From Nonlabens ponticola (GTDB lineage: Bacteria > Bacteroidota > Bacteroidia > Flavobacteriales > Flavobacteriaceae), in NCBI RefSeq assembly GCF_003966335.1, contig NZ_CP034549.1:780001-812000 (forward strand): a stretch of 32,000 nt of DNA, given 5' to 3'. Of the stretch, positions 1 through 32,000 are shown piece by piece (the first letter of the stretch is position 1; every line of letters begins with the position of its first letter). The position numbers and the translations under genes were made by a program. The notes below the pieces were generated by a model, which saw only the letters and a program-made list of their open reading frames with translations, was not told the origin of the DNA and did not search any database.

Positions 1-666
1 ATGGCTTCGACACTACTTTCAACGAGATTACTTACCGTAGCGCAACAGGAACTCGTCCTGAATAGTGGTCATGGTCTGGTACATTATGCTTGCCTTGAAA
101 TTATAGATCATGAGGTATCGATGATCGATATATCGGCATCTCACATCATAATCACCAGCAGCAATGCAATCACAGCGCTTAAAAAAATCCCTAGAGACCT
201 AATACAACAGGTTTACTGTGTAGGTGAGAAAACTGCAGCGCGAGTAGAGGACATGGGTTTAAAACCAGCTATCGTTTCTAGCAATTCAACACAACTGGCT
301 CACGCCATTTCACAACATCATCCTACACAAGAGTTTCTGTTTCTATGTGGCAAGGATCGACGCGAGGAATTGCCAGCTATTCTCAAGAAGAATAATGTCC
401 TTTTTAAAGAGATAATCGTCTATGAATCGGTGATGGTTCCCAAGAGCTTTGATCGTAAATTTGCAGCAGTTTTGATGTTTAGTCCTCGTGGCGTTTATGC
501 TTTCGCGAAAGCTAATAACGCACAACCAGACAACGTTATATGTATAGGCGAGACGACCGCTCAAGCAGCAAGAGAAATTTATAAGGTCGTGCACGTTGCC
601 ACCAAGCATACGGTAGAAAACGTCATAGTAACCGCTATTAAAGTATTGAACAATGATAAAAAATGA
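1..666 (+). CDS. hemD: Uroporphyrinogen-III synthase (HemD); may be complete, since the ATG sits at window position 1, but an upstream start cannot be excluded
   Basis: 221-aa ORF with HemD-like two-lobe layout (LLSTRLL...IIITSSNAI...FSPRGV...ICIGETTA). Overlaps hemE by 14 nt in a heme operon context. Confidence 0.78.
499..512. repeat. Iterated palindrome GCTTTCGCGAAAGC, copy 1
   Basis: Exact match inside hemD, read as Y-AFAKA-N. Shares the 20-mer TATGCTTTCGCGAAAGCTAA with copy 9. Confidence 0.97.
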
Positions 667-1672
667 TTTATTTCTAAGAGCACTGAGAGGTGAAACAGTA
701 GAGCGACCACCAGTGTGGATGATGCGACAGGCCGGACGTTATTTGCCAGATTTCATGAAGCTTAAAGAGAAATATGACTTTTTTACACGTTGCCGCACGC
801 CAGAGCTAGCTACTGAAATTACCGTCATGCCCATTGAACAAATAGGCCCAGATGCTGCGATCTTATTTTCTGATATTCTCGTGATACCACAAGCCATGAA
901 TATTGAGGTTGAGATGCGACCTGGTGTAGGTCCATGGTTGCCCAATCCCATAAGAACTGCAGCAGATCTTGACCGTGTGGTCGTGCCAGATGTCAAGGAT
1001 TCCTTGAGCTATGTGATGCAGGCTATTGATATGACCAAGGATGCTCTCAACGATGAGGTACCGCTCATAGGTTTTGCAGGATCGCCATGGACTATTTTAT
1101 GTTACTGCGTGCAAGGACAAGGAAGCAAGAATTTTGATAAGGCAAAAGAATTTTGTTTCACCCAGCCGCAAGCAGCGCATGAGTTACTGCAACGCATAAC
1201 AGATACTACCATAGCTTATTTGATAGAAAAGGTAAATCACGGCGTCAATGCCGTGCAGGTTTTTGATTCTTGGGGTGGCATGTTGTCACCAGTGGATTAT
1301 CAAGAATTCTCGTGGAAGTACATACAGCAAATCATCAACGCATTGAAACCTTATACTGAGGTGATTGTTTTTGGTAAAGGTTGCTGGTTTGCACTTAACG
1401 ATATGGCCAAAAGTGGTGCCAGCGCACTAGGCGTCGATTGGACCTGTAGCGCACGCAACGCTCGATATCTTTCGGGTGGTGAAATCACTTTACAAGGAAA
1501 TTTTGACCCATCACGATTATTCTCACCACCTGCGACCATCAAGAAAATGGTCAAGCAGATGATAGATGAATTTGGTAAGGATAAATTTGTAGCAAACCTA
1601 GGTCACGGAATATTGCCCAACATTCCTGTGGAAAATGCGCAAGCCTTTGTGGATGCTGTAAAGGAATATTGA
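653..1672 (+). CDS. hemE: Uroporphyrinogen decarboxylase
   Basis: 339 aa. Canonical N-terminal signature [17 protein letters not shown] and C-terminal NLGHGILP motif. Confidence 0.95.
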
Positions 1673-30112: not shown

Positions 30113-30901
30113 CTATCTGCAATAATTATCGCTGTAGAGCGAAACCACCTTTTTACCAACGCCTATCTCGTCCGCAAAATGTGGTAAGTCCAATCCTCGT
30201 TCTATCGCTACTGTCGTATAATATTCTTCACGCGGCAAATGATCTACGGTAATGACGTGATAGTAATCTAGCTTTTTATTGAGTTCAAGCAATAGCAGTA
30301 CTTTTTCTATCAAGATGGATTGCTCAGTCAGATTTACGGGTGCTTGTGGATTTTCTAAGTCTTTTTTACCAGCGAGATACTTTATAGGATGGCGTTCATC
30401 TCCTATCAATCCACCGGCGCGGATGATGGTAGTATTTGCAAAAGCCATCAATATAACCTGCTCACCAGCGATGATCTTGCGATCCTTTGGGCTGCTGGCA
30501 TTAGGTGTTGAATTCTCATTATACAAGGGCAAATGAACCATATCTTCAAAAACCGAGGTAGTTGAGATAAAAATCAATCTCTTGATCTGTTCAAATAGAT
30601 TGATGTTTCTAACCAGTAATTGCAATCTTCCAGCATAGTCGCTTTCAGGATTTGATCGCAAGCCTGGCGGAATATTTACGATCAACGCATCCAGATCCTG
30701 CAGGAATTCATCGATACCACCATCAATCGTGGTCTCTTTCAATTCTACCATATAAGGATCAATACCTAGATCACGCAGTTCTTGCAGCTTTTCTAGTCTG
30801 GTTGTGCTGCCTTTTACACGATGTCCTTTTTCAATTAATGCAGTTGCTAGTGGCGTTCCCAACCAGCCGCACCCTAAAATGCCTATAGTTTTATTGCTCA
30901 T
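30113..30901 (-). CDS. NAD(P)-binding Rossmann-fold protein (YeeZ-like, epimerase/dehydratase superfamily)
   Basis: IGILGCGWLGTPLA dinucleotide-binding motif right after the ATG at 30901 (MSNKT). I prefer this start over the more upstream one at 30952. It overlaps the upstream gene by 11 nt. Confidence 0.65.
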   Translation of the reverse strand: MSNKTIGILGCGWLGTPLATALIEKGHRVKGSTTRLEKLQELRDLGIDPYMVELKETTIDGGIDEFLQDLDALIVNIPPGLRSNPESDYAGRLQLLVRNINLFEQIKRLIFISTTSVFEDMVHLPLYNENSTPNASSPKDRKIIAGEQVILMAFANTTIIRAGGLIGDERHPIKYLAGKKDLENPQAPVNLTEQSILIEKVLLLLELNKKLDYYHVITVDHLPREEYYTTVAIERGLDLPHFADEIGVGKKVVSLYSDNYCR

Positions 30902-32000
30902 CGCGTGCCGTTTCAATTCGTTTCTTGACCACAATGGCGTCATTAAGAACAAAAGGTGCTGGAATCTCGCCTTCAGGTCTTGGATCGACGGCTAATTCTT
31001 GCGATTGCAGCAGGTCAAAACTTGCTGCATAGACTTCAAATACTGGATCTTCATCCTTTTCAAAAGTAAGTTCCATCACTAATGGTGAACCGTTAGATAC
31101 GTAGTAGGAAATCAATCGGTTACCGCGTCTGCGAGCAAATGGCTTACCGGCATCGTTTACGGGTGCGTTGACACCATTAATTTTGGCTGCATTAAATTGG
31201 AATCGCTTGTCTGCAAAAACTTCCCATCGATCAACGCGATCCTTACTATTCACCACAAGTTTGATTTGTCGTTGATCGCCTATGATGGTATCTACGGTGA
31301 TTTTGGAATTGATCGTTTTTAACGATCTGTACTCTGCTGGCGTTGTATGGCTATATCTACTGGCATATTTTGAATCGATGGTGTTGCCGTCATCTTTGCC
31401 ATCATTTTTTTCAGGATCAATTTTTTCCAGCGTCCAGTCGCTCAAATTGTGGTCATAGGTTGCCCATTGTGCTGTGTTATCATCTGCATTTGCTAGGTAG
31501 ATCAAGCTTGTTTTTTGTGGCTGTGTTGGTGAGAATTCCGCTTTCGCGAAAGCATAACCAGCAAAAGCAAATCCTACAAACAAGGAGATCAAACCTAATA
31601 TGTGCTTCTTGCGATAGTGGCCCAAAACAGGCACCAGCAATCCAAAAATGAGTACGCTGAGCACGGCTGCCACAAAGAGAATCTTCATGCCCAGCGCCAC
31701 GGGAAATCCCTTGATGAATGGAGTGAAAACAAATATCACTGGAGTAGTAAAAATCAAAAGCAACAAATAATTGGGCCTCTTTTTATAGATGTTGAGCCAT
31801 AGCATGATCAATCCAGCAAACAGCGGCACGATGAAAAAGCCTGCACCAGGCAAGTAAGCCGCTGGAATCAAACCGCTCTCACTAACGGGAAACGCTACAA
31901 TAAAACAGATGATCCATAGAAAAACGAGTGGTGCTACACTGTGGCTCGCCACTCGATCCTTATGATAAAACGCATGGTATATAAAGAATGTGATGGCAGT
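30891..32000 (-). CDS. Multi-pass membrane protein, 3' portion (the reading frame stays open to the window edge). Possibly the C-terminal part of a large membrane-anchored peptidase, but this is unverified.
   Basis: The frame remains open from 31953 to 32000 upstream of the GTG that the ORF track uses. There are several hydrophobic helices, then a soluble C-terminal domain. Confidence 0.55.
   Translation of the reverse strand, partial: TAITFFIYHAFYHKDRVASHSVAPLVFLWIICFIVAFPVSESGLIPAAYLPGAGFFIVPLFAGLIMLWLNIYKKRPNYLLLLIFTTPVIFVFTPFIKGFPVALGMKILFVAAVLSVLIFGLLVPVLGHYRKKHILGLISLFVGFAFAGYAFAKAEFSPTQPQKTSLIYLANADDNTAQWATYDHNLSDWTLEKIDPEKNDGKDDGNTIDSKYASRYSHTTPAEYRSLKTINSKITVDTIIGDQRQIKLVVNSKDRVDRWEVFADKRFQFNAAKINGVNAPVNDAGKPFARRRGNRLISYYVSNGSPLVMELTFEKDEDPVFEVYAASFDLLQSQELAVDPRPEGEIPAPFVLNDAIVVKKRIETARDEQ
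31540..31553. repeat. Iterated palindrome GCTTTCGCGAAAGC, copy 10
   Basis: Exact match inside the partial membrane-protein gene, read as GY-AFAKA-EFSP. The 24-mer at 31530-31553 is identical to that of copy 8. Confidence 0.97.

Follow-up and report, generated by a model that had tools for sequence, protein, structure and literature searches.

The 32,000-nucleotide stretch of Nonlabens ponticola DNA analysed here (contig NZ_CP034549.1, positions 780,001 to 812,000; hereafter the window) raises the question of why one 14-bp perfect palindrome, GCTTTCGCGAAAGC, recurs through it in ten exact copies, and what could keep it there. A first-pass annotation, made from the letters of the window, had listed these copies and taken them for a truly iterated genomic word, and a search of the window recovered all ten at the same coordinates. 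No further copy was found in the window at up to two mismatches, a tolerance at which 100 dinucleotide-preserving shuffles yielded a mean of 0.06 matches, and the chance expectation for the exact word in 32 kb is about 1e-4 copies. GCTTTCGCGAAAGC was by far the commonest 14-mer of the window, the rest of the repeated words coming from one 8-bp tandem array; this local array apart, no unrelated 14-mer was comparably frequent, so generic low complexity, an objection that the annotation had itself raised, is not the cause. The evidence described below leads us to favour, tentatively, a reading in which GCTTTCGCGAAAGC would be the invariant core of a genus-specific self tag that may serve the uptake or recombination of conspecific DNA.

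Genus range of the word

In the 156,761 bp of Nonlabens DNA compared (six species, window included), 39 exact copies of the word were found against 9.7e-5 expected under a third-order Markov model trained on masked Nonlabens DNA, and 830,138 bp of outgroup flavobacterial DNA, including Psychroflexus and Mariniflexile, contained none. Such a count in related genomes had been proposed in the annotation as a check on its claim, and its outcome sets chance aside. The host loci compared, about 21 kb each, lay around purN or hemE. Around purN, six exact copies were present in N. marinus, six in N. agnitus and two in Nonlabens sp. Ci31; around hemE there were five in N. agnitus, six in N. spongiae and four in N. 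tegetincola, and the loci of Mariniflexile and Psychroflexus salinarum had zero. These loci represent one syntenic neighbourhood (hemE to purN), to which one prophage is added, and their coordinates in the respective records differ, ranging between 0.6 and 2.5 Mb. Additionally, 80 metagenomic purN loci among the matches listed (788,551 bp, PurN at most 59% identical) held neither an exact nor a one-mismatch copy. In the low-GC species (35% GC; Ci31, locus L006, and N. tegetincola, locus L209) the density of the word was two- to three-fold below that of the species with 41-43% GC, a figure that rests on one locus per species and may be due to sampling.

The annotation had also cautioned that the copies might be an artefact. 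Genomes that were sequenced independently, from N. marinus, N. agnitus, N. spongiae, N. tegetincola and Nonlabens sp. Ci31, have the same word at orthologous places, and the PurN and HemE proteins encoded in the window are 100% identical to the N. ponticola proteins at NCBI, which discards a planted or synthetic motif as well as an assembly error. The DNA is thus natural and flavobacterial, as the annotation had supposed.

In the full-text literature we found no description of the 14-mer, of its 10-bp core or of iterated palindromes in Flavobacteria or Nonlabens, and nothing relevant on a Nonlabens methylome. Analogous 'dialect' palindromes were looked for in other flavobacteria and none was found, AAACAATATTGTTT being a local cluster only. 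This 14-bp palindrome occurs in three exact copies within 80 bp (10771-10850), adjoining purN, in an unrelated, flavobacterium-like metagenome contig of 50% GC (OCQA01000268.1; L203), and the cluster is operator-like and not dispersed. Another metagenome contig (ODHD01000186.1; L134) carries a dispersed repeat family, AATCGGCAAATC with the related AAATCGCCAAAT and ATTGGCAAATCG, which recurs four times in steps of about 2 kb between 8789 and 14530.

Conservation, spacing and flanks of the copies

In 15 pairwise comparisons of orthologous copies, the core was identical at 210 of 210 nucleotides; in the same comparisons the flanks of 45 nt on either side were 69% identical and the flanking third codon positions 52%. 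The copies between genes, one past the end of rnc and one past that of the MatE gene, were kept between species as well. These alignments show that the word has stayed base-perfect at its positions throughout the divergence of the Nonlabens species. Comparison with the outgroups shows in turn that the copies arose by point substitutions within pre-existing genes and spacers. Outgroup PurN has ALSKS where the Nonlabens protein has AFAKA, and the outgroup PurF-like protein has VLSERI against TLSRKL, with GCTTTC already there in its gene, both alignments being free of indels. Since these outgroup orthologues are colinear and carry other residues at the site, the copies were made in place by substitution, the protein being changed to fit the DNA.

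The 39 host copies are read as AFAKA (about 20), LSRK (seven) or FRES (four), or are intergenic (about eight), which means that all three frames are used with one favoured, that about three-quarters of the copies are intragenic and that intergenic DNA is somewhat over-represented. All 20 AFAKA peptides in long Nonlabens open reading frames (ORFs) were encoded by GCTTTCGCGAAAGC, one of 64 synonymous options, and the single AFAKA of the outgroup DNA (830 kb, five times more sequence) used other codons. This single encoding, together with the use of three frames and of spacers, argues for a DNA-level element and rules out a peptide motif.

The unit is the whole dyad, because inner words and half-sites were not enriched by themselves. 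Outside the full word, CGCG, TCGCGA, TTCGCGAA and the 7-nt half-sites occurred at the expected frequency in the Nonlabens loci (TCGCGA, 33 observed vs 20.9 expected; GCTTTCG six and CGAAAGC five vs three expected each). TCGCGA is thus not avoided outside the word, and a link with restriction avoidance was discarded. The mismatch spectrum fell steeply, from 42 exact copies (prophage included) to four with one mismatch and three with two, and then to chance level. Variants were commonest at the end positions 1/14 and at the CpG of position 6. The change of C6 to T in seven of about 14 variants, considered as a signature of m5C deamination, was given little weight, as these variants trace to about four independent sites in related phage contigs and are all synonymous in the AFAKA frame.

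The copies repel one another and are kept 2-4 kb apart. Those of the window are separated by nine gaps of 2345 to 4846 bp, with a mean of 3449 and a coefficient of variation (CV) of 0.25; under random placement, so low a CV has a probability of 1.3e-4 and so large a minimum gap one of 3.5e-5. Over 25 gaps, counted without orthologous duplicates, the minimum was 1835, the median 3495 and the maximum 8586 bp, and the probability that all 25 would exceed this minimum under an exponential model is 7.7e-6 (Kolmogorov-Smirnov test, P = 6e-4). Where a gap is long, it spans about two to three gaps of the usual length. One such gap, of 7.3 kb in N. agnitus, holds a one-mismatch and a two-mismatch copy at steps of about 2.3-2.7 kb; decayed copies do not fill the long gaps in general, N. 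agnitus being the only case and matches with three or four mismatches standing at chance level. In N. spongiae, where gene order differs after hemE, the copies lie in different genes and are again spaced by about 2.5-3.2 kb. That a spacing of about 3 kb is kept in spite of the changed gene order suggests that the spacing itself is what is maintained.

Damaged copies were also seen in the C-terminal part of dinB in N. marinus (L004 5047), N. agnitus (L005 5330) and Nonlabens sp. Ci31 (L006 5256), as GCTTCCGCGAAAGC, CCTTTCGCGAAAGC and GTTTTCGTGAAAGC, and the same place in N. ponticola has nothing within two mismatches. This site looks like an old copy that is decaying independently, or like a site, a mere 1.2 kb away from the next one, that is not maintained.

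The element extends beyond its 14-bp core. Reading the flanks outward from the core on each strand at 22 independent host sites (44 half-sites), we found G at +1 in 70% and never C, C at +2 in 0-2%, A at +3 in 73-90%, A or C at +4 and mostly T at +5. At positions +3 to +19, G accounted for 7% of the bases vs 20% in the background (binomial p = 5e-23; Mann-Whitney p = 5e-17). This gives a consensus of about 24 bp, KTTWC-GCTTTCGCGAAAGC-GWAAM, plus arms of about 20 nt each, C-poor and G/T-rich on the 5' side and G-poor and A/C-rich on the 3' side, with the same polarity on both strands. The pattern was present at intergenic copies and in sense and antisense halves, and since it holds at intergenic copies too, the G-depletion is not a codon effect. 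At coding copies it appears as a depletion of G-containing codons downstream and of C-containing codons upstream. A period-3 'A' signal in the flanks, considered as a DnaA-trio- or RecA-like triplet, was rejected as such and is attributed largely to a codon-position effect of the shared frame. The annotation had stated that the copies share no longer body, which is right as to sequence identity but not as to the strong symmetric signature that the flanks have in common, and its remark that no T-tract follows the word agrees with the A/C-rich 3' flank on both strands. The two flanks of a copy are not complementary to each other, the hairpin of the core is weak (-2.1 kcal/mol, z = -0.2), and no Rfam family matched.

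The word is also found in some viral DNA. An exact-match scan of IMG/VR returned at least 118 stretches; 109 of the matches listed were singletons, as chance predicts, and a few of the contigs listed carried two or three copies, 3-6 kb apart. The flank pattern was seen in the multi-copy contigs and was absent around the singleton, chance matches. In two of the multi-copy viral contigs, which are relatives of Cellulophaga phages, genes for portal, major-head, protease and HNH proteins are present, and one of the two is a prophage of N. tegetincola JCM 19294, with three exact copies in 22 kb, 3.1 and 3.6 kb apart, a density close to that of its host. The lytic Nonlabens phage P12024S has no copy within two mismatches in its 35.7 kb, there being no density figure for its host strain. 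Long-term residents of the cell acquire the word, which is not required of every replicon.

Two further observations concern these viral sequences. P12024S (L206) encodes its own DNA methyltransferase (32699-33376) as well as ERF and YqaJ-type recombination proteins. In another viral contig (IMG/VR 3300036985_007994; L106), an exact and a one-mismatch copy (GCTTTCGCAAAAGC) are found 26 bp apart, at 7954 and 7980, the single exception to the minimum-distance rule of host DNA.

Copies in the window and their gene neighbourhood

Mapping of the ten copies onto ORFs placed eight in long ORFs and two between genes, in agreement with the count in the annotation, both intergenic copies being just downstream of stop codons (Table 1). 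Equivalent arms of about 30 nt on either side, with the same polarity on both strands, were present at every one of them.

Table 1. Positions of the GCTTTCGCGAAAGC copies and of other features in the 32-kb window
Feature	Position	Context	Reading or remark
Copy 1	499..512	in hemD (uroporphyrinogen-III synthase)	A-F-A-K-A
Copy 2	5345..5358	between genes, 16 bp past the MatE gene stop (5374-6705, minus)	
Copy 3	8180..8193	in alpha/beta hydrolase gene (7516-8355, minus)	AFAKA
Copy 4	10525..10538	in AddB-like PD-(D/E)XK nuclease gene (8352-11081, minus)	AFAKA
Copy 5	15045..15058	in AddA/RecB-like helicase-nuclease gene (13886-17035, minus)	AFAKA
Copy 6	18799..18812	in purF-like amidotransferase gene (18137-20035, minus)	(T)LSRK
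Copy 7	21693..21706	in NAD-dependent epimerase-family gene (21136-21813, minus)	(T)LSRK
Copy 8	25188..25201	between genes, 41 bp past the stop codon of rnc (RNase III)	
Copy 9	27812..27825	in purN (27635-28216, plus)	AFAKA
Copy 10	31540..31553	in uncharacterised membrane-like protein gene (30891-31952, minus)	AFAKA
Full-element example	25158..25231	C-poor G/T-rich arm of ~20-30 nt, core, G-poor A/C-rich arm of ~20-30 nt	
81-bp tandem repeat	11571-11951	in OmpA-family gene	4.7 copies, 77% matches; thrombospondin type-3 repeats of this gene
8-bp tandem array	23061-23157	between dinB end (22991) and pyk 3' end (23160)	CTTCTAAT x 12, 97% matches
Overlapping ORFs	30113-30952 / 30891-31952	both minus strand	62-bp overlap; neither with a Pfam or NCBIfam match

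The hemD copy recurs unchanged in N. agnitus, N. spongiae and N. tegetincola, although the HemD proteins are only 44-54% identical. Copy 2, whose outward flanks are free of G for more than 20 nt on both sides, has a counterpart at the same place in N. agnitus with one mismatch at the end (GCTTTCGCGAAAGT). Copies 3 and 4 are both identical in N. agnitus, where the 2345-bp distance between them is also kept; at copy 3 the palindrome extends to CCGCTTTCGCGAAAGCGG in the window. The Mariniflexile orthologue has unrelated sequence at the position of copy 5, and at that of copy 6, which is identical in N. marinus and N. agnitus, it has GCTTTCTGAACGCA (VLSERI) without an indel. N. marinus, N. agnitus and Nonlabens sp. 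Ci31 share copy 7 without a change, and copy 8 has a counterpart in the corresponding spacer of N. marinus (L004 7557) and of N. agnitus (L005 7551). At copy 9 the peptide FAFAKA is kept across the genus and the DNA is identical in three other species, with ALSKS and no indel in the Mariniflexile PurN. Copy 10 is identical in N. marinus and N. agnitus, GGAATTC flank included, and the ORF that holds it has orthologues in these two species.

The genes of the window take part in haem and purine synthesis (hemD, hemE, hemF, purF-like, purN), in transport and membrane functions (trkH, cysZ, MatE transporter, ompA-family) and in DNA and RNA metabolism (addB-like, addA-like, dinB, rnc, rnhA), and others include queD, sodA, pyk, fabF and one tRNA. 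These are ordinary housekeeping genes, and those that bear a copy are functionally unrelated. No methyltransferase, transposase or competence gene was found among the annotated genes of the window. Both AddAB-like subunit genes hold one copy each, which may be coincidence with ten copies for 28 genes. In Neisseria, a bias of uptake sequences towards genome-maintenance genes has been reported.

Candidate functions and what they would mean

Hyper-abundant taxon-specific words are, to our knowledge, known in few lineages, namely the uptake signal sequences (USS) of Pasteurellaceae, the DNA uptake sequences (DUS) of Neisseriaceae, the highly iterated palindrome HIP1 of cyanobacteria and Chi. The function of HIP1 stood open for 30 years. 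HIP1 and the uptake sequences had been named in the annotation as the nearest analogues, and taxon restriction, orthologous conservation, a frame bias with an imprint on the proteome and non-random spacing all support this comparison. HIP1 (GCGATCGC) is likewise a hyper-abundant, taxon-specific perfect palindrome with a CG-rich core; it too is found in genes (three frames) and spacers, is conserved at orthologous sites above background and non-randomly distributed, and has its variants concentrated at the outer positions (PMC5861425, PMC4390886). The Nonlabens word differs in its length (14 bp, or about 24 with the consensus flanks, vs 8 bp), in being about 3-10 times sparser, in an over-dispersion at the 2-4-kb scale where HIP1 has a 10-90-kb periodicity, in the polar G-poor arms, which have not been described for HIP1, and in belonging to one genus of Bacteroidota. 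HIP1 is conserved and quasi-periodic (PMC5861425) and tied to methyltransferases (PMC4390886), and its system is defined by these cognate enzymes. Furthermore, methylated HIP1 raises transformation efficiency (bioRxiv 10.1101/2024.09.10.611283), and a phylum-wide role in uptake signalling has been suggested for it (bioRxiv 10.64898/2026.06.24.733823).

With USS and DUS the word shares a genus- or family-level specificity, a density of one per kb or few kb, an origin through point substitutions in gene segments under weak constraint, along with a frame bias and an imprint on the proteome, and an invariant core with less conserved flanks, common to related species and lacking in the next genus (PMC1939737, PMC3868556). 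The Nonlabens word is a perfect dyad, USS and DUS being asymmetric 9-12-mers, and mismatched forms are rarer in Nonlabens, where exact copies prevail at 10:1. In the USS and DUS class, competent cells preferentially take up DNA that carries the word, and for Nonlabens such a preference would have its support in an analogy, the preference of Riemerella columbina for its own DNA (PMC7965970).

In the self-tag reading, the core would be read on duplex DNA by a putative homodimeric protein, as suggested by the perfect dyad, in which the four central bases are as invariant as the rest and no loop is needed. Recognition of the core would be followed by an outward, strand-specific action on each side, to which the symmetric and strand-polar arms point. 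The tag may thereby serve the preferential handling of conspecific DNA in natural transformation and/or homologous recombination. A fragment of a few kb would be efficiently taken up or recombined only if it had at least one tag, and selection or molecular drive would then give one tag per about 3 kb. As each tag would cost protein sequence, extra tags near an existing one would not be kept, and a benefit that saturates at one tag per few-kb fragment, together with this cost, would give the observed spacing. In this regard, Riemerella, which belongs to the order of Nonlabens, is naturally competent, and homologues of its machinery are found mainly in Flavobacteriaceae (PMC8459023); R. columbina shows a preference for DNA of its own, an uptake sequence not having been defined for it (PMC7965970). 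Several points weigh against this reading. Known uptake sequences are non-palindromic and 9-12 bp long, their mismatched forms are relatively commoner, and a very even spacing has been argued to suit chromosome-compaction sites more than uptake sequences (PMC1939737). In addition, the window is devoid of competence, uptake-receptor and methyltransferase genes, we found no report of natural transformation in Nonlabens in the literature, and the genome-wide density is extrapolated from one syntenic neighbourhood plus one prophage.

The sites of chromosome-organising proteins are usually perfect palindromes of 12-16 bp (parS 16, Noc-binding site (NBS) 14, RacA ram 14, matS 13), and sites of this class may lie inside genes. 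The main rival reading, although rather doubtful in our view, is that GCTTTCGCGAAAGC is such a site, at which a dimeric protein (nucleoid-associated, ParB/Noc-like or condensin-loading) would pin or loop the chromosome at intervals of about 3 kb and whose arms would reflect wrapping or strand-specific contacts. The 14-bp palindromic form resembles that of the parS/ParB, NBS/Noc, ram/RacA and matS/MatP systems, with TTTC...GAAA arms like the half-sites of parS and NBS, and the base-perfect conservation of the core and the restoration of the spacing where gene order differs, irrespective of position, would also fit; a strongly over-dispersed spacing with a hard minimum distance is moreover what has been listed for compaction sequences (PMC1939737). 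The known sites, however, number from 10 to 100 per genome and are regionally confined, whereas the Nonlabens word stands locally at one per 3.5-4 kb with a minimum distance and is also present in a prophage on another contig; the loci compared, from 0.6 to 2.5 Mb of their records, do not show the regional confinement of the parS/NBS/matS type. The distance from TTTC to GAAA is 2 bp shorter than in parS and NBS, the copies are mostly in coding sequence at a cost to proteins, and a prophage, a transient resident, with the density of its host is less easily explained by selection for chromosome folding. Methylation-linked repair, as in Elhai's model for HIP1, is improbable. An orphan methyltransferase would modify CGCG/TCGCGA and a mismatch-specific nickase would restore the word, with outward short-patch resynthesis leaving the polar composition of the flanks. 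HIP1 abundance does track cognate methyltransferases (PMC4390886), and in Nonlabens the arms 3' of the core on each strand would correspond to the direction of patch resynthesis after a nick, the commonest variants are at positions 1/14 and at the CpG at position 6, and conversion would reach long-term resident DNA such as a prophage but pass over a lytic phage. Repair of one type of mismatch, however, cannot keep 14 positions perfect, a position-specific flank preference such as A at +3 is no mutational smear, the model does not predict an even spacing, TCGCGA and other sub-words are neither enriched nor avoided alone, the C6-to-T excess amounts to about four independent synonymous events, and conservation at orthologous sites argues for selection over replenishment (Xu et al., PMC5861425).

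A bidirectional Chi-like signal for a Nonlabens AddAB-type helicase-nuclease, in which the palindrome would stop degradation from either side and RecA would be loaded on the G/T-rich strand 5' of the core, seems to us quite unlikely. The density of Chi in E. coli is close to one per 3.5-4 kb, and RecA prefers G/T-rich DNA. The density of the Nonlabens word is thus similar and its 5' arm is G/T-rich on each strand, a phage would gain from this 'self' mark of its host, addA and addB are both within the window, and the action of HIP1 has been suggested to be 'reminiscent of Chi' (bioRxiv 10.1101/2024.09.10.611283). Against this, the known Chi sites of RecBCD and AddAB are asymmetric 5-8-mers read as single strands, and the Nonlabens half-sites alone are not enriched (six and five vs three expected), which excludes Chi as a short single-stranded word. 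We know of no Chi sites that are conserved at orthologous positions or that repel each other. There is very little probability in a hairpin at the RNA level that would serve as a signal for processing, stability or binding, whichever strand is transcribed: the palindrome would fold alike in any transcript with its A/C-only 3' arms left unstructured, and both intergenic copies of the window follow stop codons, but the fold is weak, the four central bases that would form the loop are invariant and self-complementary, the 210 identical nucleotides leave no covariation or G-U tolerance, Rfam gave no match and the host genes are unrelated in function and expression level. Hardly credible is the insertion of the word by a miniature mobile element or as a homing target, in the style of Rickettsia palindromic elements (RPEs) or of repetitive extragenic palindromes (REPs) with their RAYT. 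Many dispersed identical copies and their presence in a prophage would suit such an element, and RPEs also lie in frame in genes; the purN and purF-like orthologues of the outgroup, however, have the same length, the purF-like site already shares GCTTTC, there is neither a target duplication nor a shared body, and about three-quarters of the copies stand in frame within genes. REPs lie outside genes and are imperfect, and RPEs are insertions of 100-150 bp, whereas the Nonlabens word came with no insertion.

The annotation had excluded the usual repeat classes, and this judgement stands, given the weak hairpin without a T-run, the share of intragenic copies and the lack of indels with respect to the outgroups. 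An intrinsic terminator is rejected by the hairpin energy, the A/C-rich 3' flanks and the location of eight of the ten copies in genes; the operator of an ordinary regulator by the excess of copies and their presence in unrelated genes; REPs and bacterial interspersed mosaic elements by the intragenic majority, the perfect dyad and the absence of clustering in host DNA, where no gap falls below 1835 bp; and miniature inverted-repeat transposable elements, like RPEs, by colinearity with the PurN and PurF-like orthologues of Mariniflexile and others and by the lack of shared flank sequence.

The kind of element described here, a taxon-specific hyper-abundant word, is already known; what is new is its phylum, a core of such length and sharpness, the minimum spacing at the kb scale and the polar arms. 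A wider formulation, possible though more doubtful than the self tag, is that of a chromosome-wide punctuation, a symmetric element of about 50 bp, centred on the base-perfect 14-bp dyad, every 3 kb or so, with a hard minimum distance, which a dedicated dimeric protein acting outward would read either as a self-recognition signal (uptake, recombination, defence) or as a loop-anchoring lattice. If this were true, AFAKA, LSRK, FRES and the neighbouring G-free and C-free codons would have been rewritten in hundreds of housekeeping proteins, and the element would be the first signal of the uptake, HIP or Chi class in Bacteroidota, the longest and the most sharply specified. The conservation of all 14 bases in hemD, between proteins as divergent as those of the Nonlabens species, illustrates how a signal at the DNA level can override protein sequence. 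As an independent case from Bacteroidota, with a long exact core, steep specificity, a measurable minimum spacing and polar flanks, the word has clean properties that make the question of selection versus drive directly testable, and the sharp genus boundary, with a sister genus that lacks the word at the loci compared, should make the reader protein findable by phyletic profiling and pull-down. Lastly, if the word is an uptake or recombination signal, it would offer a handle for the genetic manipulation of marine flavobacteria, for which tools are poor, and would bear on the unexplained preference of Riemerella for its own DNA.

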